Assembly (NCBI GenBank): GCA_035651675.1 | Contig: DASRFH010000019.1 | Location: 18,288 to 82,287, forward strand | Origin: Chloroflexota bacterium | GTDB taxonomy: Bacteria; Chloroflexota; UBA6077; FW602-bin22 | Reading direction: 5' to 3' | Length of the DNA: 64,000 nt | Part shown: positions 10,508 to 51,452 of the stretch, piece by piece | How positions within the stretch are numbered: the stretch's first letter is position 1 | Layout: each line of letters begins with the position of its first letter | Made by a program: the position numbers and the translations under genes | Notes under the pieces: generated by a model | Databases searched by the model: none | What the model was told of the DNA's origin: nothing | What the model saw: the letters and a program-made list of their open reading frames with translations, nothing else

Positions 10508-13261
10508 GTGGCTAGAATCCCCACGCAGATGCCGCGGACGACTTCGACCGACGGCCCGCCCGTCTGGCAGCAGTACCAGCGCTTCAAGCGGCAGCACCCC
10601 GGCGCTCTGCTGCTGTTCCGGATGGGCGACTTCTACGAGACGTTCGACGCCGACGCGGAGATCGTCGCGCGCGAGCTCGACGTCGTCCTGACCGCTCGCG
10701 AGATGGGCAAAGGTCAGCGCCACCCGCTGGCCGGCATCCCCTACCACGCGCTCGACGGCCACCTCGCCCGCCTCGTCAACCGCGGCTACCGGGTCGCCAT
10801 CTGCGAGCAGATCGGCGATCCGGCCACGTCGCGTGGCCTGGTCGACCGCCAGGTCGTCCGCGTCGTGACGCCGGGAACGCTCGCCGAGCCGCACCTGCTC
10901 GAGGCGAAGGCGAACAACTTCGTCGCCGCGGTCTACCTCGAACCGACCGGCGCCGGGCTTGCACACCTCGACGTCAGCACCGGCGAGTTCGTCTGCTGCC
11001 AGATCGACGCCATGCGCGCGGGCCGACGCGCCCCCGAACCAGCGTCCGAGCTCGCGCGGCGTGCTGCCGAGGAGCTTGGGCGGATCGGCCCCGCCGAGGT
11101 GCTGGTGCCGACGGACGACCCTCGCGGTGGCGTGCCCGACGGGCTCCCACCTGAGCTGCGTCGGGGCTTCCACCTGACGCCCTACGAGCGGTGGCGCTTC
11201 GGCGAGGACGTCGCGCGGGAGCGCTTGCGGGGGCACTACGGCGTCGCGACGTTGGACGGCTTCGGCTGCGGAGATCGGCCGCTCGCCGTTCGCGCCGCCG
11301 GTGCGCTGCTCCAGTACGTCGCCGACACGACGCCCGGCGCGCTGCAGACGCTCCGTCCGCTGCGAACCGCCGAGGCGAGCCGCTATATGGTGCTCGACCC
11401 CGCTACGCGCCGGAACCTCGAGCTGACCGCCGGAGGCCGTGGCCGATCGGAGGGATCGCTCCTGGGAGTGCTCGACCGGACGCGCACGGCGATGGGCGGC
11501 CGGCTGCTGCGCCACTGGCTCGCCTTCCCCCTTCTGGAGCGAGCCGCGCTCGAAGAGCGGCTCGACGCGGTCGCGTCGCTCCACGGCGCGCCGAGCGTCC
11601 GCGCCCGGCTAGCAGGCCCCCTGGCGAAAGTTGGAGACCTCGAGCGGCTGGCCGCGCGGGTGGCGCAGGGCCAGGCCACCCCGCGCGAGCTCCTGGCAGT
11701 GTCGACCGGCCTGCGGGAGCTCCCGGCGCTCGCGGAGGCGTTGGGCGAGCTAGGCGCCGGCGGCGCCTGCCTCGCGCCCGTGGCCTCCGCGCACGTCGGC
11801 GCCGCCCTCGCCGAGCTCGCCGAGCTCGTCGCCCGCGCGATCGTGCCGGACCCGCCGCCGAGCCTCGCGGCTGGCGGGGTGATCGCTCGGGGCTACGCGC
11901 CAGAGCTCGACGAGCTGATCGCCTCGACCGCCGAGGCGCGCGAGTGGATGGCGACGCTCGAGGCGCGCGAGCGCGAGCGGACCGGCCTGCGCGGGCTGAG
12001 GGTCGGCTACAACCGCGTCTTCGGCTACTACCTCGAGGTTTCGTCGGCGGCGCTGCGGCTACCGCCCACCCCGGAGATCGCCGCCCGACTCGACGGTGGC
12101 CCGCCCGTCGCGACCGTCCAGGAGTTCCTCGAACGCCAGGCTGGCTACCTCCGCAAGCAGACGCTCGTCGGCGCTGAGCGGTACATCACCCCCGAGCTTA
12201 AGGAGAAGGAGCAACTCATCGCCGAGGCGCACGAGCGGATCGTCGCGCTGGAGCGGCGGCTGTTCGAGCGGCTCTGCCAGCAGGTCGCCGCGCACCATGC
12301 GGAGTTGGCGGAGACCGCCGGTCGGATCGCCTACCTCGACGTTTGCCTCAGCCTGGCCGAGGTCGCCGCCGCCAACCGCTACGTCCGTCCCCGGCTTGAC
12401 GAGGGGGACGCGATCGAGATCATCGGCGGCCGCCACCCCGTCGTCGAGCGGAGCGCGCTCGAGAACGGCTTCGTGCCGAACGACACGCGCCTATCGACCG
12501 GCGAGGAGCAGATCCTCGTCGTTACCGGCCCCAACATGGCCGGTAAGTCGACCTACCTGCGCCAGGTCGGCCTCATCGTGCTGATGGCACAGATCGGGTC
12601 GTTCGTTCCGGCCGACGAAGCGATGATCGGTCTCGTCGACCGGATCTTCACGCGGGTCGGCGCCCAGGACGACATCGCGACCGGCCAGTCGACGTTCATG
12701 GTCGAGATGGCCGAGACCGCGAACATCCTCCACCACGCGACGCGGCGATCCCTGGTCATCTTCGACGAGATCGGCCGTGGAACGTCGACCTACGACGGAA
12801 TGGCGATCGCCCGCGCGATCGTCGAGCACCTCCACGACGACCCGCGACTGGGTTGTAAGACCCTCTTCGCTACCCATTACCACGAGCTAACGGAGTTGGC
12901 TCGCGCACTGCCGCGCGTTCGGAACCTGCGCGTCGACGTGCTGGAGGACGGGGATAGCGTGGTCTTCCTCCACCGCGTGGTCCCCGGCGGCGCCGACCGC
13001 TCGTACGGCATCCACGTCGCTCGGCTCGCCGGAATACCGGGCGCCGTGCTCCAGCGTGCCAGGGCCCTCCTGCGGGAGCTCGAGAGCAAGCCGCGCCGAC
13101 AGCGGCTTGGCCAATCTGACAGTCCGGCCCGCGGCCTGTTCGACGGGCCCCGCGATCCATTGGTCGACGAGCTGGCCCAGCTCGATCCGGATGGTTTGAC
13201 GCCTCTACAGGCGCTCAATAAGCTATACGAGCTACGCGACCGCGCCCGCCTAACACCCTAG
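10508..13261 (+). CDS. mutS: DNA mismatch repair protein MutS
   Basis: 917 aa. Contains MGDFYETF, the N-terminal mismatch-binding domain, Walker A GPNMAGKST, STFMVEM, DEIGRGTSTYDG and THYHEL. An alternative start is ATG 10529, just downstream of a TAGAAT -10-like hexamer. Confidence 0.95.
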   Translation: MARIPTQMPRTTSTDGPPVWQQYQRFKRQHPGALLLFRMGDFYETFDADAEIVARELDVVLTAREMGKGQRHPLAGIPYHALDGHLARLVNRGYRVAICEQIGDPATSRGLVDRQVVRVVTPGTLAEPHLLEAKANNFVAAVYLEPTGAGLAHLDVSTGEFVCCQIDAMRAGRRAPEPASELARRAAEELGRIGPAEVLVPTDDPRGGVPDGLPPELRRGFHLTPYERWRFGEDVARERLRGHYGVATLDGFGCGDRPLAVRAAGALLQYVADTTPGALQTLRPLRTAEASRYMVLDPATRRNLELTAGGRGRSEGSLLGVLDRTRTAMGGRLLRHWLAFPLLERAALEERLDAVASLHGAPSVRARLAGPLAKVGDLERLAARVAQGQATPRELLAVSTGLRELPALAEALGELGAGGACLAPVASAHVGAALAELAELVARAIVPDPPPSLAAGGVIARGYAPELDELIASTAEAREWMATLEARERERTGLRGLRVGYNRVFGYYLEVSSAALRLPPTPEIAARLDGGPPVATVQEFLERQAGYLRKQTLVGAERYITPELKEKEQLIAEAHERIVALERRLFERLCQQVAAHHAELAETAGRIAYLDVCLSLAEVAAANRYVRPRLDEGDAIEIIGGRHPVVERSALENGFVPNDTRLSTGEEQILVVTGPNMAGKSTYLRQVGLIVLMAQIGSFVPADEAMIGLVDRIFTRVGAQDDIATGQSTFMVEMAETANILHHATRRSLVIFDEIGRGTSTYDGMAIARAIVEHLHDDPRLGCKTLFATHYHELTELARALPRVRNLRVDVLEDGDSVVFLHRVVPGGADRSYGIHVARLAGIPGAVLQRARALLRELESKPRRQRLGQSDSPARGLFDGPRDPLVDELAQLDPDGLTPLQALNKLYELRDRARLTP

Positions 13262-13297
13262 GCAACAAGCGCCTCCTTTCGGTACATTTCCACCGAT

Positions 13298-13816
13298 ATG
13301 GAAGTCACCGTCTACTCTACCCCCACTTGACCGTGGTGCCACCGGGCGAAAGAGTTTCTTTCGCAGAGGGGTGTCCCGTTCCGGGACGTGGACGTGTCGC
13401 AGGACCACGCCGCCGCCGTCGAGATGGTTCGCCGCTCCGGCCAGCAGGGCGTGCCGGTCATCACGGTCGACGACCAGGTCGTCGTCGGCTTCGATCGGCC
13501 GCGGCTCGAGCGGCTGATCGAGGGCGCCAGAGCACGCCGGCCGGTTTTCGGGGCGGCGGTCGCCGACGCCGCGAGCTACCTCGCTAAGCGCGGGGCCGTT
13601 CCGATCTTCGGCGCGTTCGTCGGCAAGGTGTCGCCCGGCTCGCCGGCCGATCGGATCGGGCTCCAACCCGGCGACGTGATCACGCAGATCGGCCTTCGCC
13701 CGATCACGAACGCCGAGGGTGTGGAGAAGGCGATCGAGGCGATCCAGCCTGGCGCCCGCATCCCGGTGACCTGGACGCGCGGCGGTCAGCAAATCACCCG
13801 CGAGGCGGCCTTCTAG
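13298..13816 (+). CDS. Glutaredoxin-like (NrdH/YruB-type) + PDZ fusion protein with in-frame TGA at the first redox-Cys position (candidate selenoprotein, alternatively a pseudogene)
   Basis: The track ORF starts at GTG 13388, mid-domain. Extending in the same frame from ATG 13298 gives MEVTVYSTPT-[TGA 13328-13330]-PWCHRAKEFLSQRGVPFRDVDVSQDH...GVPVITVDDQVVVGFD. This is a complete Grx fold with TGA in place of the first Cys of C-P-W-C. The C-terminal half is PDZ-like (GAFVGKVSPGSPADRIGLQPGDVITQI). Confidence 0.6.
13346..13364 (+). promoter_or_regulatory. Candidate bacterial SECIS hairpin downstream of the in-frame UGA
   Basis: 8-bp perfect stem GCGAAAGA/UCUUUCGC with loop GUU (or 7 bp with loop AGUUU). 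The apical loop begins 23 nt after the UGA and contains G and U. Confidence 0.4.
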
Positions 13817-13834
13817 GACGCGGCCGGCGGTTAT

Positions 13835-13858
13835 CCTCCCGGCGACAACGCCGGGAGG
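13835..13858 (+). promoter_or_regulatory. Hairpin pairing an anti-SD (CCUCCC) with the SD (GGGAGG) of the downstream dehydrogenase gene
   Basis: Perfect 10-bp stem CCTCCCGGCG/CGCCGGGAGG with loop ACAA. The 3' arm is the only SD-like element upstream of GTG 13865. No U-tract follows, so it is not a canonical terminator. Confidence 0.35.
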
Positions 13859-13864
13859 GCCGCC

Positions 13865-14833
13865 GTGCCGACAGCGCTCGTTCCCCAGTTCGTCCACGAG
13901 CCCGGCCCCAGCCTGCTCCGCGAGGCACTCGACGTCGAGTACTGGGAAGCCGACCGGCCGCCGCCGCGCGCCGAGCTCATCGCCGCGATCGCCGACGCCG
14001 ACGCGCTCATGTGCCAGTCGAACTGCCGCGTCGACGCGGCGGTCATCGGGGCGGCGCCGAAGCTAAAGGTCATCTCGAACGTCGCGGTCGGGTACGACAA
14101 CGTGGACGTGTCGGCCGCGACCGACCGCGGCATCGCCGTCTGCAACACGCCGGTCGCGGCGCTCCACGAGGCGACCGCCGACCTGACGTTCGCGCTCATC
14201 CTCGCGTCCGCCCGTCGGCTCGGCGAGGCTGAGCGCTACCTCCGGGCGGGCCGGTGGACGCACTGGTCGCCCCAACTGCTCGTCTCGGCCGACGTCCACG
14301 GCCGCACGCTCGGCATCGTCGGCCTCGGCCGCATCGGCCAGGCCGTCGCCCGGCGCGCCGGCGGCTTCGGCATGCGCGTCCTGTACACAAGCCGGCGGCG
14401 AAACGAGGCCGCGGAAGACGCACTGGGCGTGCGTTATGTACCGCTTGATGCCCTATTAGAGGAAGCCGATTTCGTCAGCCTGCACGTTCCGGCAACCTCC
14501 GCGACGCGAGGCCTGATCGGCGGTCGTGAGCTGCGGCTGATGAAGCCGACGGCGTTCCTGATCAACGCGGCGCGCGGGGCGGTCGTGGACCAGCGCGCCC
14601 TCTACGAGGCGCTACGGGACGGATGGATCGCCGGCGCCGGGCTGGACGTGTTCGATGGCGAGCCCATCGCTATGGACGACCCGCTGCTGACGCTCGACAA
14701 CGTGGTGCTCGTTCCGCACGTCGGCGGGGCCACCCTGCCGGCCCGGCAGGCGATGGCCGAGGCGGCCGCGAGGAACCTGCTGGCGGTGCTTCGCGGCGAA
14801 CGGCCCTTCTCATGCGTCAACCTGGCAAGCTGA
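13865..14833 (+). CDS. D-isomer-specific 2-hydroxyacid dehydrogenase (glyoxylate/hydroxypyruvate reductase-like)
   Basis: 322 aa. NAD-binding GIVGLGRIGQAVARRA, then NAARG..VD and VLVPHVGGAT with the catalytic His region. Confidence 0.85.
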   Translation: MPTALVPQFVHEPGPSLLREALDVEYWEADRPPPRAELIAAIADADALMCQSNCRVDAAVIGAAPKLKVISNVAVGYDNVDVSAATDRGIAVCNTPVAALHEATADLTFALILASARRLGEAERYLRAGRWTHWSPQLLVSADVHGRTLGIVGLGRIGQAVARRAGGFGMRVLYTSRRRNEAAEDALGVRYVPLDALLEEADFVSLHVPATSATRGLIGGRELRLMKPTAFLINAARGAVVDQRALYEALRDGWIAGAGLDVFDGEPIAMDDPLLTLDNVVLVPHVGGATLPARQAMAEAAARNLLAVLRGERPFSCVNLAS

Positions 14834-17458: not shown

Positions 17459-18186
17459 GCCACCCAGTATCGCTCGCCGCTCGCGAAGTAGGCGCGCACG
17501 GCCTGTTCCATCGCCGCCCCGTCGCCGAAGAGCGTAGCGATCTGCGAACGGTAGCGGGCGATCGCTTCGACCTTCCGTTCGAGGAGGTCCGCGGCGAGCG
17601 ACACAATCGGACCCTCGTGGGCGCCCAGCTCGGCGACGCGTTTCGCCAGCGCATCCGGCTCGCGCGCCACGTACGGGAAGTCCTCGTAGAGCAACAGCCC
17701 AGGGAGCGCCGCGCTCGCGCGCAGCGCGATCTGGTGATCGACGTGGTTGCCGACGGCCATAGGCGCGCGCCAGATCGCCTCAGGGTGTAGGCGGGCCAGG
17801 TCGCTGAGCCGCGCGGCGATCTCGTCGACCAGCTTGGCGTCGCCGGGCTTGACGACGCCGAAGAGCTCATCGTCCGACCGGTATTGCTCGCCGCGGTAGA
17901 TCGCGTCGAGCCAGGGCATCGGCAACCAGTCGGCGCCGAGCAGGTCGAGCGCCGCCTGCTGCTCGGCCCGGCGCTGGGCGATCGGATCGTCGGCGGCACC
18001 CCAGCGCGCATGCTGGCCGGCCGCGAACTCGGTCACCACCGCCGCGCGCCCAGGGTCGCCGGCGAACAGCGTCACGACCAGCACGGGCTCGCCGCGCGCG
18101 GCGAAGACCTGCACGCTGCCACCGCAGGAGAGCGCGACGTCGTCGAAGTGCGGCTCCACGAAGACGTGTCGGTACCTCTCGGGCAT
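17455..18186 (-). CDS. PIG-L/LmbE family deacetylase
   Basis: The N-terminal VFVEPHFDDVALSCGGS (P-H-x-D-D signature) and a later HVDH are typical of LmbE-like N-acetylglucosaminyl deacetylases. It overlaps the next gene by 4 nt. Confidence 0.75.
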   Translation of the reverse strand: MPERYRHVFVEPHFDDVALSCGGSVQVFAARGEPVLVVTLFAGDPGRAAVVTEFAAGQHARWGAADDPIAQRRAEQQAALDLLGADWLPMPWLDAIYRGEQYRSDDELFGVVKPGDAKLVDEIAARLSDLARLHPEAIWRAPMAVGNHVDHQIALRASAALPGLLLYEDFPYVAREPDALAKRVAELGAHEGPIVSLAADLLERKVEAIARYRSQIATLFGDGAAMEQAVRAYFASGERYWVA

Positions 18187-20020
18187 GGCGAGCGGGGATT
18201 ATCCTCCGCCCGTGACCACGACGGCCGGCAAGATCCGCGTGCTCCCGCCGTCCGTCGCCGAGAAGGTGGCGGCCGGCGAGGTGATCCAGCGCCCGGGCGA
18301 CGTCGTGAAGGAGCTCGTCGAGAACGCGATCGACGCGATCGCCGAGGCGAGGGCCGCGCAGCCCAGCCGAGCCAAGCAGATCGGCTCGGTCCAGGTGGAG
18401 CTGCGCGGCGGAGGGCTCGACCTGATCCGGGTCGTGGACGACGGCTGCGGCATCCCGGCCGAAGACGTCGAGGCGGCGCTCGCGAGGCATGGCACGAGCA
18501 AGATCCGCGATCTGGACGACCTCGGCCGCGTCCGTACGCTCGGCTTCCGCGGCGAGGCGCTGCCGAGCATCGGCGCCGTCGCCGAGCTGAGCGTCCTCAC
18601 CCGTCCCTACGCCGCCGCCGTGGGTGCCTACGTGCTCGTGGAGGGCGGCGAGCGGCGTGGGGCCGGCCCGCGCGGCTGCCCGCCGGGCACCCAGGTGCAA
18701 GTGCGCCGCCTCTTCTTCAACCTGCCGGCCCGGCTGGCGTTCCAGCGCTCGCCGGCCGGGGAGGCGGCCCACATCGCCCACCTGGTCGGCGTCTACGTGT
18801 TGGCGTATCCCGACCTCCGGTTCCGGCTCGTGGTGGACGGCCGCCGCGCGATCGAGGCGACGGGCGGCACGCTGGCCGACGCGCTCGCCGCCGTCTACGG
18901 GCCCGAGGCGGGCGCCGCCGCGCTGCCGGTCGAGCTGGTCGACCCGGCCGGGGTCGCGGTACGCGGCGTAATCTGCCGGCCCCACCTCACCCGCGGCACC
19001 CGCGGCGACGTGACGCTCTTCGTCAACGGCCGCCCGATCGCGAACCGCAACCTGGCCCACGCCGTCGTCGACGCTTACCGCGGCTTCCTCCCGGACGGCC
19101 GCTTCCCGCTCGCCGCGCTGAACGTCGAGCTGGATCCCGCCGAGGTCGACGTCAACGTCCACCCCAGCAAGGCCGACGTCCGCTTCCGGCGCGACCGGCT
19201 CGTCTACGCGACGCTCCAGCGCGCCGTGCGCGGCGCGCTGCTCGCCCAGGCGCCAGCGCCGGTCGTGTCACGGCCGCTCGACGGCGCGGTCGCGACGCCG
19301 CGCCCCGCGCGTCCTCCGTCGGGCCGCCCCGAGCCCACCCAACGGCCGATCCCGTTTGCTGTCGAGATGAGGCCGAGGCCGCCCACCGCGGACCCGCCAC
19401 AGACCGCGCCGGCGACCTCGGCAGCACCCGTCACCACCGCCGGCTCCCGCCTGCCAATCCTTCGGATCGTCGGCCAGGTGCAGGGCACCTACATCGTCTG
19501 TGAGGGCCCGGACGGCGTCTACTTCGTCGACCAGCACGCCGCCCACGAGCGCGTGCTGTACGAGCAGGTGCTCGCGCAGCGCGCCGCTGGCGGGGTCGCG
19601 CGCCAGCAGCTCCTCGAGCCGCTCGCAGTCGAGCTCGGCGGCCGTCGCCTCGCGCTGATCGAGGAGCACGCGGCCGCGCTGGCGCAGCTCGGCTTCGAGG
19701 CCGAGCCGTTCGGCGGCGCGACCGCGCTGCTGCGCGCCGTGCCGACCGGCGTCAAGAGCGGGGACAGTGCCCGCGCCCTCGCCGACGTCCTCGACGCGCT
19801 CGCCGACCCGACGCCCACCGTCGACGGGCTAGACCGCGGCGCCGCGAGGGTCGCCTGCCACGCGGCCGTCCGGGCCGGCGACCTGCTCAGCCCCGAGCTG
19901 ATGCGCCAGGTGATCGAGCAGCTCGAGGAGACCGACGTCGGCAGCTTCTGCCCCCACGGCCGCCCGACCGTCGTGCGGCTTCCGGTCAGTCAGCTCGAGC
20001 GCGACTTCGGGCGGCGGTGA
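18185..20020 (+). CDS. mutL: DNA mismatch repair protein MutL
   Basis: IRVLPPSVAEKVAAGEVIQRPGDVVKELVENAIDA, DDGCGI and GFRGEAL (GHKL ATPase), followed by the C-terminal dimerisation domain ending in CPHGRPT. The true start may be GTG 18212. Confidence 0.9.
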   Translation: MASGDYPPPVTTTAGKIRVLPPSVAEKVAAGEVIQRPGDVVKELVENAIDAIAEARAAQPSRAKQIGSVQVELRGGGLDLIRVVDDGCGIPAEDVEAALARHGTSKIRDLDDLGRVRTLGFRGEALPSIGAVAELSVLTRPYAAAVGAYVLVEGGERRGAGPRGCPPGTQVQVRRLFFNLPARLAFQRSPAGEAAHIAHLVGVYVLAYPDLRFRLVVDGRRAIEATGGTLADALAAVYGPEAGAAALPVELVDPAGVAVRGVICRPHLTRGTRGDVTLFVNGRPIANRNLAHAVVDAYRGFLPDGRFPLAALNVELDPAEVDVNVHPSKADVRFRRDRLVYATLQRAVRGALLAQAPAPVVSRPLDGAVATPRPARPPSGRPEPTQRPIPFAVEMRPRPPTADPPQTAPATSAAPVTTAGSRLPILRIVGQVQGTYIVCEGPDGVYFVDQHAAHERVLYEQVLAQRAAGGVARQQLLEPLAVELGGRRLALIEEHAAALAQLGFEAEPFGGATALLRAVPTGVKSGDSARALADVLDALADPTPTVDGLDRGAARVACHAAVRAGDLLSPELMRQVIEQLEETDVGSFCPHGRPTVVRLPVSQLERDFGRR

Positions 20021-20026
20021 GCGGCG

Positions 20027-22000
20027 TCACTCGGCGCCCTCGCTCAGGATCCGCTCCTCGACCGCCCGGCAAATGATGTCGGGCAGCGCGTCGATCTTCG
20101 GCACGAGTGTCCCGCGCGAGCACGAAATCGGGAGGTCGTCGATCACCGGCTCGTAGGACGCTTTGAACTCGACCTCGGCCAGCCCGACGCCGAAGGCGAG
20201 CAGCCGCAGCCGCTCGCGCGGCGGCCGGACCGCGTTGCGCTCCTCGATCCCGACCAGCGCGTCGACCAACGCCGCGCGGTCGCTCGAGATGCCGTCGGTC
20301 ACGATGAGGATCGTCTTGAGCCCCGGCTGGCCGCCGATGTCGGCGACCGCCTGGCTGATCGCGCGCGCTTCCTGCGTCTCGCCATGGTCGAGCGCGTACA
20401 TGTCGCGGATCAAGTAGCTGAAGTCCTTGACCACGTAGTGGCTCGAGGGGTCGATCCGCATCGAGTCGTAGGCAATCTCCGAGAACGAGCGCATCACGCG
20501 CGGCGCGTCGGAGAACGCGATCACTTCGTACGGCAGCTTCAGCCGCTCGTGGATCTCGATGAACAACACCGCCGTCTCGACCACCTGATCGAACTTACGG
20601 CTCGGGTAGCCACGCTGCACGACCGACCCACTCACGTCGAGCAGGATCGCGTTCGCGAAGTCCTTGAGGCTATCCTGGCGCTGCTGCCGGACGCCCTTCA
20701 GGAAGGCGACCGCCGGGTCGATCAGCAGGTTCTCGGGCCGGTCCTCGTCGAGGTCGCCGGTGTCGCCCCGCCGGAAGCGGCGCGGCCGTCGGTACGGATC
20801 GGCAGTGCCGAAGCGGCGCAGCGTGAGAATCTGCGCCAGGCCGGGCGCGCCGCCGCGGCCGTGCACCGTCGCGTCGATCAGCGGCTCGAGTTGCCGCACC
20901 TTGCGCACGTAGTCGAACTGCTCGTAATCCGGCCCGCCGCGAGGCTTGAACCGCCGGATGCGCTGGATGACGCCACCCGCCCAGCGCGGCCCGGCGTCGA
21001 GCCCGCTCGGCCGCGGCAGCGGCTGGGCGGGCTCCCTGCCCTCTGCCTCGTCGGCGCTCCTCGGAGGCTTCGGCGCGCGCTCCTCGGTCTCCTCCGGGGG
21101 CAGGGCGCCGATCGGTGCATCTTCCCGGACGAAGAAGAACACGCCCTGGTCGCCGCCGGGGGGCTCCAGATCCTTCGTCTCGTCGGCCGCCGGCGGCATC
21201 CAGTCCTCGTCCGGCTCCTCGTCCGCCGGCGGTGGCTCGGGCTCGAGCTCGTTCGGTGGCGGCCGACGCTGCTCCTCCGCGAGCTCCTGCCGCGAGCGCT
21301 CGATAAGCTGGCCGTAGAGCGGCAGCAGCGCCGTGAGTCGCCCGGCGCATTCCGCCATGCTGTCCGCGTCGGCGGCGTGGGCCGCGTCGGGCCAGCCGCG
21401 CCGCACGGCGTCGGCCACGCGACCGTCGACGGACCGGTCGACGTCGGGCCATACACCGGCGATCCACCGCGCGATCAGACCGTCGAGGAACAGGTGGTGG
21501 CTTAGCGGACGCTCCGCGCTCCGCCGACCGCGCACGTCGTTCTTCGGGTGCAGCTCGGTGCCCTGCGCGTACAGCGACCGGAGGAAGAGCGACGCGCCGG
21601 GATAGGCACGCAGGTAGCGGTTGTTGACGCGGAAGTCGTTGACGACGTTCAGCAGAAGCACGGCGCTGCCGTGCTCGACCCGGTAGCGCGTCGCGTCGGT
21701 CGCGAATCGGTAGATCGCCTTGCCGGCCTCGGGCCCGGCGTACAGCGCCTCGGCGACTTCGTGGCAAAGCGCACCAACCGCGCGCACGCCCGACCATTCG
21801 TGTAGCAGGTGTGCCGGGTAGACGAGCGTCCCGGAGTCTGGGCCGTACGCCCACCATTCGCCCGCCACGAGACGAACCGGCTGGTCGCGGAGGAGCAGCC
21901 GCGCGATCGCCTCCAGCTCGGATGGCCGGTAATGGAGAGACTCGATCTCGGCGGCCAGCGCCTCGACGGTTGCCGCGACCGGCGGGCTACCCGACGCCAC
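20027..22000 (-). CDS. VWA-domain protein with acidic/Pro-rich central linker (CobT/NorD-like partner of the upstream AAA+ ATPase)
   Basis: 657 aa. The C-terminal VWA domain has MIDAS DVSGS and a later TDG. The central region ELEPEPPPADEEPDEDW...EETEER is strongly acidic. The N-terminal ~250 aa are uncharacterised. Confidence 0.7.
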   Translation of the reverse strand: MASGSPPVAATVEALAAEIESLHYRPSELEAIARLLLRDQPVRLVAGEWWAYGPDSGTLVYPAHLLHEWSGVRAVGALCHEVAEALYAGPEAGKAIYRFATDATRYRVEHGSAVLLLNVVNDFRVNNRYLRAYPGASLFLRSLYAQGTELHPKNDVRGRRSAERPLSHHLFLDGLIARWIAGVWPDVDRSVDGRVADAVRRGWPDAAHAADADSMAECAGRLTALLPLYGQLIERSRQELAEEQRRPPPNELEPEPPPADEEPDEDWMPPAADETKDLEPPGGDQGVFFFVREDAPIGALPPEETEERAPKPPRSADEAEGREPAQPLPRPSGLDAGPRWAGGVIQRIRRFKPRGGPDYEQFDYVRKVRQLEPLIDATVHGRGGAPGLAQILTLRRFGTADPYRRPRRFRRGDTGDLDEDRPENLLIDPAVAFLKGVRQQRQDSLKDFANAILLDVSGSVVQRGYPSRKFDQVVETAVLFIEIHERLKLPYEVIAFSDAPRVMRSFSEIAYDSMRIDPSSHYVVKDFSYLIRDMYALDHGETQEARAISQAVADIGGQPGLKTILIVTDGISSDRAALVDALVGIEERNAVRPPRERLRLLAFGVGLAEVEFKASYEPVIDDLPISCSRGTLVPKIDALPDIICRAVEERILSEGAE

Positions 22001-22035
22001 GTCTTCGCGGCCCGCAAAGATTGCTCACCGGCGGC

Positions 22036-24396
22036 TCACTCCACCCCGTACTGCAGCAGCACCGGCTCCAGGACTCGCCGGGCCGCGTCGCTCGCGCCTT
22101 CGAGCACGCCCGTCCGGAACCGCTGACCGAACTCGGCCGCGTCGCGGCTGGTCCGCGCGATGGCGACGAGCTCGGCGGTCGAGAGCGCCGCGCCGCGCGC
22201 CGCCTGCCGCAGTGCTTCCTGCGAGGCGCGACTGAGCCCCACGATGGAGCCAGGGTCGATCCGCCCGGTCGCGATCTGGCGGCAGTAATCGACCAGGCGC
22301 ACGCAGTTCTCGAGCGCGCGTGAGCCGGCCAGCCCGGGCGCGACGAATTGGAGGATCGCGACCTCCTCCGCGATCGGCGGGTAGTCGACGGCGACGATCG
22401 CGCCGAAGCGGTTCTCGACGGCCTCGTTCAAAGGCTTCACGCCCGGGCCCTCCAGCGAACCGGTCGCGATCACCCACGCGTCAGGGTGAACCCGGAACAG
22501 CGTGCCGTCCGGCAGCGTGACGCTCGCGCCTTTATCGAACAGGCCGTTGATCAGCGAGTGCACGTCGGGGTAGGCGACGTTGTAGTCGTTCACCAGCACG
22601 GCGTCGCCGCGGTCGAGCGCCTCGAGGAATGCCTGGGTGGTCCATCGGGTCACGCCGCCGACCAGCCGACGGCTGGCGGTCAGGTCGCCCTTGGCGGTCT
22701 CGCCGGTCAGCGAGAACTCGACTAGCCGCTTGCGGTTCAGCAGCGCGAGCGTGCGGGCGAGGCTCGACTTGCCCGCGCCGGTCGGTCCGGCGAAGAACAC
22801 GGGCCGGCCCATCAGCAGCGCGGCCTCGGCCAGCCGAAGCGCGCCGATCGAGCTCGCGGTCAGGCACGGCAGCGCCTCGGCGCGGGTCGGCGGCCGCCCA
22901 AGCCGCCACGGCACGTTGACGCCGTAGACGTCGCGCAGCTCCGCCTCGATCTCCTCCATGCGCCAACGGTCGCGGATCTGCCGGTTCTGGGAGTCGTAGG
23001 CGCGGAGCCGCAGCCCAAGGCCGACCCGGCCCCCGCCGTGGGGGTAAAACGGCTCGCCGACCAGCACGCGCGTGCCATCGGCCAGCCGCTTCTGGTAGCG
23101 GACCGCGTGGACCACGACCTCCTCGTGGGCGCGGCCGTTCCGAGGCCGGTGCAGGACGTGCGCGGGCGGCTGCACCTTGTCGATGGCGACCGCTTCGGCG
23201 GAGTGCACGTCCGGCCAGCGCGCGCGCAGGTCCGCCACCCGATCCGCTCCGCCGACCCGCGCGTCGGCCAGCGCCCTCCGGATCACGTCGAGCGCCCGCT
23301 CGCGGGCCTCGCGCGGCAGGGTCGTGAGGAGCGCTCGCTCGGCCACGTCGGCGAGCGGCCCGCCCGTGATCGCACTGAGCCCGGCCCAGTGGATCAATGC
23401 GCGGGTCGACAGTCGGTTGATGAGGACCGTCCCGATCTGCGCGTCCGAGCGCAGCTCCGCGGCGACGTCCGTGAGCCGTCGGGCGAGCGCGCGGTCGAGC
23501 CGCACGCCGCGCCCGCCGAACGGCTCCTGCGCGTCGAACTCCGCGACGATCGCGTCCGCCTCCTCGTCCGGCGGGATGAAGGTCATCTCGATGTAGCCGA
23601 GCCCCCGACCGAAGCGCCGCTCCATCGCGCGCCCGAGATCGAGCGTGCCGACGTAGTTGGGGTTCGCCGTGCCGATGATGCCGAAGTGGCGGTGAACTTC
23701 GACCTCCACGTTGCCCCGCTCGGTCCCGGAGACGATCAGCCGCCCGGTGTCCATCGCCTGCGAGAAGACGACGAGGATGTCGGCTGGCACCATGTTGATC
23801 TCGTTGATGAGCAGCTTTTTCCCGAGCAGCATCGCCTCGACGGCCGGGCCGGGCACGGTCACGGTGCTCTGCCCTCCCTGGCCGCGGATGACCTCGACCG
23901 AGCGGTAGAAGTCGTTCAGCGTCGTGTCGCCGCTGAACGAGAGCTCGGTGAGCGGCTGGCCGGCGAGCCAACAGTACGTCTTTGCGGTCGTGGTCTTGCC
24001 GCAGCCGGTCGGGCCGAAGAGCAGCACGAAACCGCGGTGCTCGCCTGAGCTCGTGTCGGCGGTGGCGATCCGGCGCAGGACCCGACCCATCGCCGGGGAG
24101 ACGTAGCCGAACACCTCGCGCTCGCTTGGGATGGCAGCCGTGAGGTCGGCGGGCTCGACGAGCCGGTCGAGCTGGGACGCCCAGTCCGGCGGCCGTTGGC
24201 GGCGTCTGGCCAGCGGCTCGAGCCCCGGCTCGGCGCGCAGCCGACGCCGCGGGAAGCTGACGCCGTCGACCTCGAAGTGGTCGTCGTAGAGAGCCGCCCC
24301 GGGGCCGAGCGACCGTGCCACGACCTGGGTCACAATAGGCGATCTTAGCATCGGCACACGGAATGCATTCCCCATCTTGGGGCAGCGACGTCCCAA
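22036..24396 (-). CDS. Tandem AAA_5 (MoxR/CbbQ/NorQ-class) AAA+ ATPase
   Basis: 786 aa with two P-loops, LLFGPTGCGKTT and FFAGPTGAGKSS. Each is followed by a Walker-B-like strand with non-canonical residues (LLINEIN and VLVNDYN). The start is uncertain; ATGs at 24396, 24375 and 24351 are all possible. Confidence 0.75.
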   Translation of the reverse strand: MGRRCPKMGNAFRVPMLRSPIVTQVVARSLGPGAALYDDHFEVDGVSFPRRRLRAEPGLEPLARRRQRPPDWASQLDRLVEPADLTAAIPSEREVFGYVSPAMGRVLRRIATADTSSGEHRGFVLLFGPTGCGKTTTAKTYCWLAGQPLTELSFSGDTTLNDFYRSVEVIRGQGGQSTVTVPGPAVEAMLLGKKLLINEINMVPADILVVFSQAMDTGRLIVSGTERGNVEVEVHRHFGIIGTANPNYVGTLDLGRAMERRFGRGLGYIEMTFIPPDEEADAIVAEFDAQEPFGGRGVRLDRALARRLTDVAAELRSDAQIGTVLINRLSTRALIHWAGLSAITGGPLADVAERALLTTLPREARERALDVIRRALADARVGGADRVADLRARWPDVHSAEAVAIDKVQPPAHVLHRPRNGRAHEEVVVHAVRYQKRLADGTRVLVGEPFYPHGGGRVGLGLRLRAYDSQNRQIRDRWRMEEIEAELRDVYGVNVPWRLGRPPTRAEALPCLTASSIGALRLAEAALLMGRPVFFAGPTGAGKSSLARTLALLNRKRLVEFSLTGETAKGDLTASRRLVGGVTRWTTQAFLEALDRGDAVLVNDYNVAYPDVHSLINGLFDKGASVTLPDGTLFRVHPDAWVIATGSLEGPGVKPLNEAVENRFGAIVAVDYPPIAEEVAILQFVAPGLAGSRALENCVRLVDYCRQIATGRIDPGSIVGLSRASQEALRQAARGAALSTAELVAIARTSRDAAEFGQRFRTGVLEGASDAARRVLEPVLLQYGVE

Positions 24397-24407
24397 AGGA
24401 GAATGCA

Positions 24408-24656
24408 GTGGCGGACAAAGAAAAGGTCAAGGGCAAGCTCAACGAGGCGGTCGGCTCGGTCAAGCAGGGCATCGGCTCGGCGACGGGCGACGAGCGCCTG
24501 CAGGCGGAGGGACAGGCCCAGGAAGCGAAGGGCAAAGGCCAGGGCCTCGTCGGCGATGTCAAGGACAAAGCGCGTGAGGCGAAGGAGACCGCCAAGGGCG
24601 CCGTCGGCGCCGTAAAGGACGCCGCGCACGACGAAGAGCGGAGCCGGCGCCCTTAA
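24408..24656 (+). CDS. CsbD family general-stress protein
   Basis: GTG 24408 follows AAGGAG. The product ADKEKVKGKLNEAVGSVKQGIGSATGDERLQAEGQAQEAKGKGQ... is the typical CsbD repeat pattern. Confidence 0.75.
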   Translation: MADKEKVKGKLNEAVGSVKQGIGSATGDERLQAEGQAQEAKGKGQGLVGDVKDKAREAKETAKGAVGAVKDAAHDEERSRRP

Positions 24657-26854
24657 CCCCGCGACCTGAACAGGGTGGCGATCAAGTTGTCCACGGGTGC
24701 GTACTGATCAGTCAGGACGATCTGCGGCCCGTCGGCGACGTAAGCGTCTAGCTGATCCTGGGGAAGCTCGGCGGTGATCCCGCCGAGCTTCTTGACGTCT
24801 ATGCCGTTCTCAGACCCGGCGATCACCCAAACGTTGGCGCCGCCGCTCTGCCAGGCCGGCCCGGCGGCGAGCAGCTGCACCCGTGGGAAGGCCTGGCGCA
24901 TCGTGCGCAGGGCCGAACGGAGGAGCTGGCCGTCGCGGTAGAGGTCGATGACGGTCAGCAGGTACGCGCCGCCGGGCTGCAGCAGCTCGCGCACGCGGTC
25001 GTCGTACTCCTTGGTCATGATGTGGTACGGCACCGAGAGGTCGTTCACGGCGTCCTGCACGACCAGCGTGTAGCCGCCTTTGGGCGCCTGCTCCTGGACG
25101 AACTGGCGGCCATCGAGGTTGTACGTGACCACCGGCGTATCGTCCGGCAGGTCGAGGTACCGGTGCGCCACCTGCGTCACACCCGGATCGATCTCGACCA
25201 CCTCGACCCCGACGCGCGGAAGTTGTGACGCCACCCAGCGCGGGTAGGTGTAGCCGCCGCCCCCGATCACAAGCACGCGCGGGTTCGCCTGGCCGTCGGT
25301 CAGGAAGCGGGTGATGTCGGCCTGGATCTGCTCGTGGACGTACCCGAGGTAGGTCGGGTCGCCTGGTTTGACGTAGGAGTGGACAAGATGGTCGAGCACG
25401 AGTGTCTTGACTGGCCCGGTGCCCGGTTGAACCGCGTCGCCGACCTTGATGCAGTAGTAATTCGTCTCGAGCGTGCAGCGCGACCGCGCCGCGTCGCGCG
25501 CCACCAGGAGCGCGATCGCACCGCCAGCCACCACGATGGCCGTGGCCAGCACGACCCGCCGCGACCAGAACCGTCCCACCACCATGCCGAGCAACAGCAG
25601 GAGGAGCGCCAGCCCGAACACCAACGTGTGCACGCCCACCGCCGACACGAGCCACCATCCGGTCGCGAAGGTGCCGACGATCGCGCCGGCCGTGGACCAC
25701 GCGTACACCTCGCCGGCCACGCGGCCCGAGCGCCGAACGTCGATCACCGCTAGCCGGATCACCTGCGGCGAGATGGTGCCCAGCAGCAGGACCGGGACGA
25801 AAAACACGGCCGCGGTCTCGGCGAGGATCCGCTCGACAAGCCCCATCGACGCCCACAGGGCCCCCTCGTCGAGCAGCTCGGCGAGTCGGAGGATTAGCAG
25901 CCCGCCCAGACCGCTGACGAACAAGCTGGCGCCGAGGACCCTGCGTCCGGGCCACCGGTCGGCGATCCAGCCGCCGAGGTAGTTGCCGAGCGTGATCCCG
26001 AGCAAGACCACGCCGATGATGCCGGTCCAGCTGTAGAGCGACAGGCCGAGGTACGGCGCCAGGAGGCGGCTGGCAGCGAGCTCGACACCCATGCTCGCGA
26101 AGGAGGCGACGAACACGGTGGCCGCCGCGGCGGCGAGGGGGAGCACGACGCCGGACGATCGGGCCAAGTCGGACGGCACGCCGCGCGGACCGACGAGCTC
26201 GCTCGGCCGCCACCACTCGCCTGCCAGGCCGCCGATCGCGATCAGCGCAAGGCCCACGCCGACGACGATCGTGTTGACCGGCAAGTAGGCGGTGAGCACG
26301 AACCCGGTCGCGAAGTTGCCGACGAGCGAGCCGAGCGTGGCGCACGCGTAGACGAGGCCGACCACGCGGCCGGTGCGGCCCACCTCCGGCAGTGCGCACC
26401 TGATCGCGATCGGCGGGACCATACCGAGCACAAGGTTCGGCGGCAGGAAGATGAGGGTGGTGAGCACGAAGATCCGGCCCAGAAGTGGCAGCGCTCGGAC
26501 CGGCGCCGAGCCGCCGAGGACGGCGACCAGCGGGATCGTCGCGAGCGACAGCGCTCCGCCGACCAGGAACAGCGCGCCGAGCCGCCTGGGGCTCGCGCCC
26601 CGATCGGCGTACCTCCCGCCCACGAAGTTGCCGATCGAGACCCCAGCGAGGACCACGCCGATGATCGACGTCCAGGTGTAGAGCGACACGCCGACGTACG
26701 GCGACAACATCCGCCCGGCGACCAGCTCGAGCACTAACGACGCCGCGCTCGCCACGAAGGCGAGAAAGTACGGATGAAGCGCCGATGCCGATCGCCCCTC
26801 CCGTCGGGGGGGAGCGAGCGTGAGGGCTCCTTGCTCCTGCGCGATCGCCGCCAT
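24653..26854 (-). CDS. Fused polytopic membrane (MFS-like) / spermidine synthase-like protein
   Basis: I trimmed the ORF to ATG 26854. About 500 aa of hydrophobic helices are followed by a class-I methyltransferase/spermidine-synthase-like domain (VLVIGGGGYTYPRW, VEVVEIDPGV, VQDAVND). Confidence 0.75.
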   Translation of the reverse strand: MAAIAQEQGALTLAPPRREGRSASALHPYFLAFVASAASLVLELVAGRMLSPYVGVSLYTWTSIIGVVLAGVSIGNFVGGRYADRGASPRRLGALFLVGGALSLATIPLVAVLGGSAPVRALPLLGRIFVLTTLIFLPPNLVLGMVPPIAIRCALPEVGRTGRVVGLVYACATLGSLVGNFATGFVLTAYLPVNTIVVGVGLALIAIGGLAGEWWRPSELVGPRGVPSDLARSSGVVLPLAAAAATVFVASFASMGVELAASRLLAPYLGLSLYSWTGIIGVVLLGITLGNYLGGWIADRWPGRRVLGASLFVSGLGGLLILRLAELLDEGALWASMGLVERILAETAAVFFVPVLLLGTISPQVIRLAVIDVRRSGRVAGEVYAWSTAGAIVGTFATGWWLVSAVGVHTLVFGLALLLLLLGMVVGRFWSRRVVLATAIVVAGGAIALLVARDAARSRCTLETNYYCIKVGDAVQPGTGPVKTLVLDHLVHSYVKPGDPTYLGYVHEQIQADITRFLTDGQANPRVLVIGGGGYTYPRWVASQLPRVGVEVVEIDPGVTQVAHRYLDLPDDTPVVTYNLDGRQFVQEQAPKGGYTLVVQDAVNDLSVPYHIMTKEYDDRVRELLQPGGAYLLTVIDLYRDGQLLRSALRTMRQAFPRVQLLAAGPAWQSGGANVWVIAGSENGIDVKKLGGITAELPQDQLDAYVADGPQIVLTDQYAPVDNLIATLFRSRG

Positions 26855-26889
26855 GGCGGCACAGTATAGGAACGAGGCTGCGTGCCGAC

Positions 26890-26918
26890 TTGTCAGTCGC
26901 CGCGGGCGACCGTACAAT
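26890..26918 (+). promoter_or_regulatory. Sigma-70-like promoter for gltB
   Basis: TTGTCA (26890-26895), a 17-nt spacer, then TACAAT (26913-26918), about 140 nt upstream of the gltB ATG. Confidence 0.45.
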
Positions 26919-26962
26919 ACGGGTAGTCTCGGAGGACGCGGGACACCGTAAGACGACGACGT

Positions 26963-27007
26963 CCACGGCCTGAGCCAGGTGCGGCCAGGCGGTGGGCGTT
27001 TTTGTTT
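26963..27007 (+). terminator. Terminator-like hairpin plus U-tract inside the gltB 5' leader (possible attenuator)
   Basis: Arms CCACGGCCTG (26963-26972) and CAGGCGGTGG (26986-26995) pair over 10 positions with one G-G mismatch. GCGTTTTTGTTT follows. It lies between the predicted promoter and ATG 27057. Confidence 0.4.
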
Positions 27008-27056
27008 CCCCCGGCAGGCTGGACCGCATCTCAAAAGCGGGGAAGAACGTATCCGG

Positions 27057-31580
<4,524 letters not shown>

Positions 31581-38085: not shown

Positions 38086-39208
38086 GCTCCGGTTCGGGCC
38101 AGGCCTCGTCGCGGCGGCCCGCGCCCTCGACACCCCCTGCCTCGTGCTCGATCAGGACTTGCTGCTCCGTGCCTACCGCGCGCTCAGGTCGGCGCTGCCC
38201 GGCGCCGAGCTCTTCTACGCTATGAAGGCGAACCCGCACGACGCGGTCGTCGCGCCGCTCGCGGCCGACGGGTGCGGCTTCGAGGTCGCGTCGACCGCGG
38301 AGCTCGAGCTCGCCGCGCGGCACGGCGTGCCGCCGGAGCGGATCATCTCCTCCAACTCTGTCAAGACGATCGACCTGCTGCGGCGGGCGCGCGCACTGGG
38401 CGTCGATCGGTTCGCGTTCGACTCCGAAGACGAGCTTCAGAAGATCGGGCGCTTCGCGCCCGGCGCGCGCGTGTACTGCCGCGTGGTCGTCGACAACAGC
38501 GGCTCCGACTGGCCGTTGTCGCGCAAGTTCGGCGTCCCGGCCGGCGACGCGGTGCCCATGCTGCTCGACGCTGCCGCCCTCGGACTGCGACCGCACGGGC
38601 TGTCCTTCCACGTCGGCTCGCAGTGCCGCGACGTGGCGAGCTGGCGTCGCGCTATCGAGACGTGCGCGGCGATCTGGCAGGACGCCGCGCGGGCGGGCCT
38701 GCGCCTCGAGGCGCTCAACCTCGGCGGCGGCTTCCCGGTCCGGCACCTGAGGGAAACGCCGAGCTGGAACGCGATCGGCACGGAGATCGGCGCGGCGGTG
38801 GCGGAGCTGCTCCCACCCGGGGTACGGCTGGTCGTCGAGCCCGGCCGCGCGATCGTCGGCGGGGCGGCGGTGCTCGTGACGAGCGTGATCGGCAAGGCAC
38901 GGCGCGGCGACGAGCGCTGGATCTACCTCGACGCCGGTGTCTTCAACGGCCTCATGGAGGCGGTCGGCGGCCTCGGCTACGAGCTGCGCACCGAGCGCGA
39001 TGGTCCGACGAGTCGGCAGGTCGTGGCCGGGCCGACCTGCGACTCGATGGACGTGATCGCGACCGAAGTCGAGCTGCCGGAGCTCGAGGTTGGCGACCGC
39101 GTGTACGTCATGAACGCGGGCGCGTACACGCTCAGCTACGCGTCCCGGTTCAACGGGTTCGCGCCGCCGGAGCTCCACCTGCTACCCGGTGTGGCGCTCC
39201 CGCGCTAG
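38075..39208 (+). CDS. Group IV PLP-dependent decarboxylase (ornithine/DAP/arginine decarboxylase family; probably ornithine decarboxylase given the context)
   Basis: FYAMKANP (PLP lysine), GFEVAS, HVGSQ, a GGG loop and the C-terminal CDSMD motif. It overlaps speE by 11 nt. Substrate assignment is an inference from the operon. Confidence 0.8.
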   Translation: MSAELRFGPGLVAAARALDTPCLVLDQDLLLRAYRALRSALPGAELFYAMKANPHDAVVAPLAADGCGFEVASTAELELAARHGVPPERIISSNSVKTIDLLRRARALGVDRFAFDSEDELQKIGRFAPGARVYCRVVVDNSGSDWPLSRKFGVPAGDAVPMLLDAAALGLRPHGLSFHVGSQCRDVASWRRAIETCAAIWQDAARAGLRLEALNLGGGFPVRHLRETPSWNAIGTEIGAAVAELLPPGVRLVVEPGRAIVGGAAVLVTSVIGKARRGDERWIYLDAGVFNGLMEAVGGLGYELRTERDGPTSRQVVAGPTCDSMDVIATEVELPELEVGDRVYVMNAGAYTLSYASRFNGFAPPELHLLPGVALPR

Positions 39209-40099
39209 GCCCTGGCCGACCATCTGGGTGTAGATCTGGGTGGTCGCGATGTTGGCGTGGCCGAGCAGCTCCTGGACGTCGCGCAGGTTGGCGTTGTTGC
39301 TGAGTAGGTGGATGGCGAACGAGTGGCGGAGCGTGTGGGGCGTGATCGAGCCAGGCAGGTTGGCCGCCTTCGCGTAGCCCTTGAGGATGAGCCAGAACCC
39401 CTGGCGGGTGAGCCGCTCGCCGCGATGGTTGACGAACAGAGCCGGCGTCTCGCCGTGGCGCGTCAGGCTGGGCCGCGCGAGCGTCAGGTACTCCTCGATG
39501 ACCTGGTGCGTGCGGAAGTCGAACGGGATATGCCGCTCGCGGCCTGCCTTGCCCAGGCAGCGAACGTAATCGGACGCGAGGTCGACGTCGTCCACGTCGA
39601 GCCCCATCATCTCCGACACGCGCATGCCGGTCGCGTACAGGAGGCGCAGCATCGCTGCGTCGCGCGTCGCCTCGGGGCCGGTCTTCTGGAGCGGCGCGGC
39701 CAGCAGCGCATCGACCTCCTCGGGCGCCAGCGTTCGGGGGAGCGTCTTCCCGACCTTGGGCGAGTCGAGGTTGTCGGTCGGGTCGAACTTGATCAAACCC
39801 TCGGCGTGCAGCCAGTGGAAGAACGACTTGACCGCCGCGATCTTGCGCGCCAGCGTCGCAGACGCGTAGCCCTTCTCCTTCAGCCCGTCGAGGAACCCGA
39901 CCAGCCGCCCCTTGTTGACGCCGGCCCAGTTGAAGCTCTCGTCGGCGTCCTGACCGCCGGCGACGTACAGCGGGCGCCCGTTGGTGCGCAGGTAGTCGTA
40001 GAGCTGTGAGAGGTCGTTGCGGTAGGCGGCGATGGTGTTCTCGGAGCTCGACTTTTCGTTGACCAGGTACGACAGGTAGCGGTCGATTTCGCGCTGCAA
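39182..40099 (-). CDS. Site-specific tyrosine recombinase, XerC/XerD family
   Basis: TTG start 5 nt after GGAGGGA. The N-terminal SAM-like domain reads [23 protein letters not shown]. The C-terminal catalytic region reads [12 protein letters not shown]...[13 protein letters not shown]. Confidence 0.85.
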
Positions 40100-51451: not shown

Positions 51452-51452
51452 C

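Follow-up and report, generated by a model that had tools for sequence, protein, structure and literature searches.

Glutaredoxins (Grx; Pfam PF00462) with a UxxC motif, in which selenocysteine (Sec, U) takes the place of the first redox cysteine, are an experimentally verified prokaryotic selenoprotein family (PMC13188914). Examples have been reported from Geobacter, Moorella and Alkaliphilus (PMC1794560), and a Sec-Grx of Clostridium oremlandii has been characterised (Kim et al. 2011, cited in PMC13188914 and PMC9312934). Here we analyzed a gene at positions 13298–13816 of a 64,000-nucleotide stretch of a Chloroflexota genome (contig DASRFH010000019.1; hereafter the window), which encodes a glutaredoxin domain fused to a PDZ domain (Grx-PDZ) and carries an in-frame UGA at the first redox cysteine. 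By every sequence-level test, its product belongs to the Grx class of selenoproteins. The window protein and the described Sec-Grx proteins have in common the fold and Pfam family, the predicted replacement of the N-terminal Cys of CxxC by Sec, a hairpin of the bacterial selenocysteine insertion sequence (SECIS) type inside the open reading frame (ORF) after the UGA, and the coexistence of Cys orthologs. However, the window protein differs in its C-terminal HtrA-type PDZ domain (172 aa, compared with ~80 aa) and in having U-P-W-C and an NrdH/YruB-like VVGFDRP instead of classical glutathione-binding motifs. Its family belongs to Chloroflexota rather than Deltaproteobacteria or Clostridia, about half of its members are predicted Sec forms, and the two forms switch often.

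Three further systems were compared. The Trx7/PDZ domain-containing (seleno)protein (NF041199, motif CxxU), predicted from metagenomes (PMC13188914, PMC9312934), likewise joins a Sec-containing thioredoxin-fold redox domain to PDZ and so combines a redox centre with a peptide-binding module, but its redox domain is Thioredoxin_7 rather than Glutaredoxin, its motif is CxxU rather than UxxC, and its model length is 390; the window protein scored 26.7 bits against a cutoff of 300, with the PDZ segment alone (residues 106–166) aligning. The UXX-star family (NCBIfam NF041212, NF041114, NF041211 and NF047338), which is listed in reviews as 'Distant Grx-like protein 1' with the motif UxxT (PMC13188914, PMC9312934), has the same small YruB-like glutaredoxin fold but UxxT where the window protein has UxxC; the score against the glutaredoxin-like (seleno)protein model NF041212 fell below the cutoff (64.6 versus 66 bits; model positions 1–65 of 70), the last five model positions being unmatched where the window protein runs on into the PDZ domain. 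HtrA, DegP, DegQ and DegS resemble the C-terminal half in their PDZ1 domain, by both sequence and fold, with an x-F-G-x loop at the carboxylate-binding position, whereas the window protein has neither a trypsin-like protease domain nor a signal peptide; against the HtrA/Do serine endopeptidase model (TIGR02037), it reached 50.2 bits (cutoff 416), over model positions 225–322 (linker and PDZ1) only.

No NCBIfam model spans the full Grx-PDZ architecture, and no mention of a Grx-PDZ selenoprotein was found in the literature searched. The PDZ-fused Chloroflexota form appears to be uncatalogued; BSepDB or a similar large selenoprotein database may already include it under 'Grx'. An initial annotation of the window had called Grx-PDZ fusions uncommon and a Sec-containing one notable. 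This novelty was overrated, because UxxC Sec-glutaredoxins have already been verified (PMC13188914, PMC1794560) and the fusion is common within Chloroflexota: a protein search returned 837 homologs, and in genomes representing species the presence of the gene was confirmed at 183 loci.

An in-frame UGA at the redox cysteine position

We found that ATG 13298, the TGA and the terminal TAG lie in a single frame with the translation MEVTVYSTPT*PWCHRAKEF...REAAF; reading from the ATG gives MEVTVYSTPT-TGA-PWCHRAKEFLSQ..., with 172 codons to the TAG. The region is one gene, in which a YruB-type glutaredoxin domain is fused to an HtrA-type PDZ domain. The only entry for this gene in the mechanical ORF list, 13388–13816, begins at an internal GTG within the glutaredoxin fold. 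When Cys was substituted for the stop, the Pfam scan of the product detected Glutaredoxin (PF00462) at residues 3–62 (E = 1.7e-20, 73.4 bits, cutoff 22.9) and, at residues ~93–167, the models PDZ_6 (42.3 bits), PDZ_2 (37.4 bits) and PDZ (36.1 bits), all above their cutoffs. Frame, translation and Pfam thus bear out the initial annotation, which had read a complete glutaredoxin from ATG 13298 with TGA at the first redox Cys, a listed ORF starting in the middle of a thioredoxin fold and, as Foldseek also indicates, a PDZ domain in the C-terminal half.

The same codon was then compared across the family, using DNA from 80 species-representative genomes, almost all of them Chloroflexota. At the first Cys of the motif, the species-representative loci together with the window carry TGA in 30 cases, TGC in 28 and TGT in 10; with metagenome contigs added, 85 intact members divide into 41 with TGA and 44 with TGC or TGT at the same column. 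The frame is open through the PDZ domain in all 85 members, and the ORFs of all TGA forms (41/41) are 150–230 aa long. The N-terminus, M-x-V-x-V-Y-S/T-T-x-T, is kept in both Cys and TGA forms. Four members (L013, L015, L059 and L062) sit in metagenome-assembled genomes labelled Rubrobacter, Sphingomonadaceae or Pirellulales, and these are probably mis-binned contigs rather than cases of horizontal transfer.

The lengths of the 837 homologs are bimodal. Proteins of ~172 aa open with M-x-V-x-V-Y-T-T-P-T-C-P-W/Y-C, and the others, of 121–157 aa, whose internal starts fall on Met or Val codons at various positions, are labelled 'PDZ domain-containing protein', 'S1-C subfamily serine protease' or 'PepD'. 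All TGA-bearing genomes that were examined had the gene annotated with an internal start, under the name of a PDZ protein or a serine protease. The JGI labels 'S1-C subfamily serine protease' and 'PepD' given to the short ORFs are misannotations caused by the TGA.

A SECIS-type hairpin and the identity of residue 11

The hairpin GCGAAAGA-GUU-UCUUUCGC follows the UGA within the coding sequence. Its perfect 8-bp stem (13346–13353 with 13357–13364) encloses an apical loop at 13354–13356, the spacing from the UGA is 15 nt to the stem and 23 nt to the loop, and the free energy is −10.9 kcal/mol (28-nt segment). Published constraints on bacterial SECIS elements are a loop of 3–9 nt, a stem of 4–16 bp, a G in the first two loop positions, usually followed by G or U, a distance of 16–37 nt from UGA to loop and a free energy of −7.5 kcal/mol or lower (PMC13188914). 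The window hairpin falls within all of them, in agreement with the initial annotation, which had located the hairpin with this stem and loop distance and considered its geometry compatible with published elements.

The comparison between TGA and Cys forms carries the argument further. Using the minimal 28-nt segment, the bacterial SECIS constraints were satisfied by 26 of 30 TGA forms and by one of 38 Cys forms (Fisher's exact test, P = 1.5e-13). On a fixed structure, 86.7% of cells were paired in the TGA forms, a level reached by none of 500 shuffles; the corresponding value for the Cys forms, 45.6%, was reached by 446 of 500 shuffles and is indistinguishable from shuffled sequences. Pair 20:36 covaries in the TGA set, being U-A in 11 sequences and C-G in 10. 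In L168/L169, an A-U pair has become U-A by a double change, with a Lys-to-Met substitution in the 5΄ arm matched by a silent change of a Leu codon in the 3΄ arm, and in L170, the closest syntenic Cys ortholog, the stem is lost. The third-position entropy of the hairpin codons is lower in TGA forms than in Cys forms (0.76 versus 1.33), and the window hairpin uses rare codons (AAA, 11.7% of Lys; TTT, 4.4% of Phe; CTT, 4.3% of Leu, in a window of 70% GC). Thus, the family splits between Cys codons and TGA at exactly this position, and the hairpin is present and covarying in TGA orthologs and absent from Cys orthologs. Comparison with relatives strongly supports the selenocysteine interpretation of the initial annotation, and we consider it very likely that TGA 13328–13330 truly encodes selenocysteine and is served by a hairpin signal of its own in the mRNA.

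On this interpretation, the UGA would be recoded by SelB carrying Sec-tRNA(Sec), and SelB would be recruited by the hairpin, whose GUU apical loop follows the UGA at 23 nt. The hairpin at the same time serves as coding sequence for part of helix alpha-1 (A-K-E-F-L-S-Q). This expression mechanism, UGA plus SECIS, is well supported by the sequence comparisons; from this anatomy and the established bacterial Sec pathway, we infer the actual insertion of selenium at residue 11.

Several observations weigh against this interpretation. No SelA, SelB or SelD domains were found among 45 predicted genes of the window (Pfam scan), ARAGORN detected no tRNA of any kind, and hence no tRNA-Sec, in the 64 kb, and direct reading of the sequence revealed no clear Shine-Dalgarno sequence before ATG 13298. 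Four of the 30 TGA forms narrowly fail the free-energy or stem constraint in the minimal 28-nt segment. A comparable hairpin follows 27 of the 541 plus-strand TGA triplets in the window (5%), so that the hairpin of a single window is modest evidence and the case rests on the comparison. The Cys column holds only TGA, never TAA or TAG, but we did not accept this pattern as strong evidence, since a Cys codon is one mutation away from TGA and two from TAA or TAG. An Rfam search of the whole window at gathering thresholds gave no match, which is uninformative for this hairpin.

We also considered that the UGA might be translated without Sec, by SelB-independent read-through, by a near-cognate tRNA (Cys or Trp) or by SelB-delivered Cys when selenium is scarce, or that the hairpin might mainly be a pause or regulatory element tuning expression. 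The hairpin would indeed also slow ribosomes at the UGA, and the inserted residue is not identifiable from sequence alone. Moreover, the Sec-decoding capacity of the source organism is supported at the phylum level only, the best match among contigs of species-representative genomes having 68% identity. In the metagenome scan, the best match had 71% identity. Nevertheless, the UGA occupies the catalytic Cys of CxxC, where known selenoproteins typically show Sec/Cys pairs (PMC1794560, PMC13188914), and the hairpin has the geometry of a SelB-type SECIS and obeys the GU rule for the loop. Use of Sec is documented for the phylum; Chloroflexi are among the phyla with the Sec-decoding trait (PMC1794560, PMC5322559), and BSepDB lists Dehalococcoidia genomes with 46–49 selenoproteins (PMC13326102). 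In addition, TGA is the ordinary terminator of 20 of the 51 predicted window genes, which indicates that the genetic code is not globally reassigned. Translation of the UGA as another residue, or a mainly regulatory hairpin, is therefore improbable.

A pseudogene, in which a TGC/TGT-to-TGA nonsense mutation has struck a Cys-glutaredoxin-PDZ gene and an internal start yields no more than a PDZ-only fragment, would agree with the single mutational step, with the internal-start ORFs of 121–157 aa that gene callers do yield, and with a window devoid of Sec machinery. It would not account for the same TGA in 41 lineages across the family tree, none of which shows another stop or frameshift, nor for a structured element that accompanies the TGA and is missing from Cys forms. 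The internal starts vary among relatives (Val or Met, at different positions), leaving no conserved alternative start. Purifying selection also persists upstream: across the eight codons 5΄ of the TGA, entropy at the three codon positions is 0.61/0.62/1.67 in TGA forms and 0.67/0.34/1.71 in Cys forms, a third-position bias which argues that the N-terminal segment is translated and under protein-level selection. On a neighbour-joining tree, which is rough because the protein is short, TGA and Cys forms are intermixed, and parsimony requires at least 12 switches between them. The closest syntenic relatives have TGA in L167 (84% aa identity) and L168/L169 (77%) and Cys in L170 (77%), and these close relatives share the order mutS, Grx-PDZ gene, dehydrogenase, SDR; the presence of both forms in the same gene order indicates that Sec and Cys alternate between true orthologs. 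We thus regard a pseudogene as very improbable.

Finally, a sequencing or assembly error with TGC as the true codon is of negligible probability; the TGA is one base away from a Cys codon and local errors can occur in high-GC genomes, but TGA stands at codon 11 in all of six independent assemblies of near-identical strains (99.2–99.9% identity to the window), of which four are Logan assemblies from separate SRA runs and two are NCBI metagenome assemblies, and likewise in 29 species-level genomes and further metagenome contigs. Over the ten codons that precede the TGA, the strains differ at few sites, always synonymously (TCT/TCG, ACT/ACC). The comparative data and the six assemblies effectively exclude both alternatives raised by the initial annotation, a nonsense mutation and a sequencing error. 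A scan of the window for other TGA-interrupted genes with coding on both sides returned antisense or adjacent-gene artefacts only, and the Grx-PDZ gene is accordingly the only selenoprotein candidate in the window. The features of the gene are summarized in Table 1.

Table 1. Positions in the window of the Grx-PDZ gene, its codons, motifs and domains, and the evidence for each
Feature	Position	Strand	Evidence
Predicted Sec-containing glutaredoxin-PDZ coding sequence, complete	13298..13816	+	172 codons, UGA read as Sec at codon 11; frame, Pfam, TIGR02196, full-length Cys and TGA orthologs
Start codon ATG	13298..13300	+	36 nt past the mutS stop; N-terminus conserved
In-frame UGA, predicted Sec codon, residue 11	13328..13330	+	Aligned with the N-terminal redox Cys of CxxC
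Redox motif U-P-W-C	13328..13339	+	Translation and alignment with Cys and TGA homologs
Putative bacterial SECIS-type hairpin within the coding sequence (codons for A-K-E-F-L-S-Q)	13346..13364	+	Geometry, energy, covariation, codon usage
Glutaredoxin (thioredoxin-fold) domain, residues 3–62, YruB/NrdH-like, with cis-Pro loop GVPV and VVGFDRP motif	13304..13483	+	PF00462, TIGR02196, AlphaFold (AF2) topology of a homolog
HtrA-type PDZ domain, residues ~93–167; structural domain from ~residue 84 at the F-G-A-A-V loop	13574..13798	+	Pfam, alignment to HtrA models, Foldseek
Stop codon TAG	13814–13816	+	Same frame as ATG 13298

Domain architecture, gene neighbourhood and proposed function

Among the NCBIfam models, the YruB glutaredoxin-like family (TIGR02196, GlrX_YruB) was matched above its cutoff (95.5 versus 88.55 bits). 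Assignment to NrdH redoxin (TIGR02194) was rejected (52.2 versus 85.75 bits). The PDZ part aligned to the PDZ region of the DegP, DegS and HtrA models, and the Pfam scan of the product revealed no trypsin-like protease domain. C11 and C14 are invariant in a 70-sequence alignment of Cys forms, and V52-P53-V54 and G85 are also invariant.

For the structure, we used the AlphaFold model of a natural Cys homolog, P0001, which is 80% identical to the window protein (mean predicted local distance difference test score, 86.5). In this model, a thioredoxin-fold domain (residues 3–63; topology beta-alpha-beta-alpha-beta-beta-alpha) is followed by a helix (residues 67–76) and a beta-rich C-terminal domain; the orientation of the domains relative to each other is uncertain (predicted template modelling score, 0.53). 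A Foldseek search against the PDB matched the C-terminal half to PDZ1 of DegQ, DegP, DegS, HtrA2 and HtrA3 (root-mean-square deviation 2.1–2.8 Å over ~90–100 residues), with the loop F84-G85-A-A-V occupying the position of the carboxylate-binding loop. The protein opens directly with strand beta-1; it therefore appears to lack a signal peptide and is most likely cytoplasmic. The VVGFDRP of the glutaredoxin domain is similar to the WSGFRP motif of NrdH, and this resemblance suggests reduction by thioredoxin reductase rather than by glutathione.

We compared the flanks of the family loci and found dnaK, dnaJ or clpB within them at 19 of 84 loci (14 Cys, 5 Sec). At the loci whose coordinates were read, the chaperone gene directly adjoins the Grx-PDZ gene on the same strand, in several arrangements. 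A rubrerythrin-like ORF also recurs beside Grx-PDZ genes (nine loci in the clustering), as does the beta subunit of 2-oxoacid:ferredoxin oxidoreductase (seven loci); example neighbour ORFs of these two types are L053 1796–2302, L060 3381–4085 and L102 4992–5492. These neighbours may indicate an oxidative-stress context.

From domain homology and this partial gene neighbourhood, we hypothesized that the most likely function is that of a Sec-dependent thiol-disulfide oxidoreductase whose PDZ domain captures client C-termini, possibly in protein quality control. Sec would be the attacking redox residue (U11-P-W-C14) of a cytoplasmic 172-residue selenoprotein in which the glutaredoxin domain is joined to PDZ by a short helix-linker. 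Its selenolate would attack disulfides or sulfenates of clients, C14 would resolve the intermediate, and thioredoxin reductase would probably return the oxidised Se-S centre to its reduced state, as it does with NrdH-like redoxins. The PDZ domain would tether clients or partners through their exposed C-terminal tails, as HtrA PDZ1 domains do. A role in the redox repair of unfolded or damaged proteins, and thus in protein quality control, is suggested because about a quarter of the family loci adjoin dnaK, dnaJ or clpB. However, the limited reach of this neighbourhood evidence counts against the functional model, and in the window itself the neighbours of the Grx-PDZ gene are mutS and a 2-hydroxyacid dehydrogenase, not chaperones. 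The mutS synteny was rejected as a functional clue, being kept in the closest relatives only. What reduces the protein, what its PDZ domain binds and what it does in the cell are likewise inferred.

Other features of the window and implications for Chloroflexota

The gene following Grx-PDZ encodes a D-2-hydroxyacid dehydrogenase with the start codon GTG 13865. Between the two genes lies a perfect 10-bp inverted repeat, CCTCCCGGCG-ACAA-CGCCGGGAGG (13835–13858, plus strand), whose 3΄ arm holds the only Shine-Dalgarno-like sequence, GGGAGG, 7 nt before this GTG; because of this location, the ribosome-binding site of the dehydrogenase could be sequestered by the repeat. No T-run follows the repeat, and a promoter and terminator scan of 13000–14100 was negative.

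According to Pfam, the window genes are housekeeping genes, including mutS, mutL, an ATP synthase operon, purine and histidine biosynthesis genes, aminoacyl-tRNA synthetases, mreB and a xerC-like recombinase. The mutS (10508–13261) and mutL (18185–20020) genes are ~5 kb apart and enclose Grx-PDZ, the 2-hydroxyacid dehydrogenase, an SDR, a minus-strand stretch that is an acyltransferase in relatives, a metallo-beta-lactamase-fold protein and a PIG-L deacetylase. The order of this interval is mostly kept in L167, L168 and L170 but not across the wider family. Next to mutL, a cluster of very large ORFs (20027–31580) contains ORFs of 657 aa (20027–22000, minus strand) and 793 aa (24653–27034, minus strand) without Pfam matches, a 786-aa AAA_5 (MoxR/dynein-like) ATPase between them (22036–24396) and, after the 793-aa ORF, a 1533-aa ORF (26979–31580, plus strand). 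A 641-aa ORF (49526–51451) combines an N-terminal NYN nuclease domain with an OST-HTH/LOTUS domain and overlaps by ~360 nt the GMP synthase call (51093–53027), which is over-long, with the GATase domain beginning only at residue 138. A XerC/XerD-type tyrosine recombinase (Phage_integrase and a SAM-like N-terminal domain; 39182–40099, minus strand) adjoins mreB; it probably resolves chromosome dimers and does not belong to a mobile element.

A wider proposal is put forward tentatively and, as one joint claim, we consider it rather doubtful. Grx-PDZ would form an uncatalogued selenoprotein subfamily of Chloroflexota, with Sec in ~40–50% of species, a dozen or more switches between Sec and Cys, and Sec forms hidden as short 'PDZ protein' or 'S1-C protease' entries; its members would be PDZ-tethered redox co-chaperones working with DnaK, DnaJ or ClpB, and the near-invariant 19-nt hairpin (GYGAARGA-GUU-UCUUUCRC) would be a minimal SelB recognition element for the phylum.

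The findings leave the understanding of the Sec decoding mechanism unchanged. They correct a recurrent misannotation, which in Chloroflexota, a major phylum of soil, sediment and groundwater, conceals a redox enzyme as well as one of the markers of selenium use. About half of the family is predicted to use Sec and half Cys, switches have occurred independently many times, and some orthologs at one locus differ only in Sec or Cys and the hairpin, so that the family is well suited to the study of why Sec is gained and lost, and to following how a SECIS element may be built into, or erased from, a coding helix through synonymous changes. The PDZ fusion and the adjacency to dnaK, dnaJ and clpB further suggest that selenium-dependent thiol chemistry may be linked to protein quality control.

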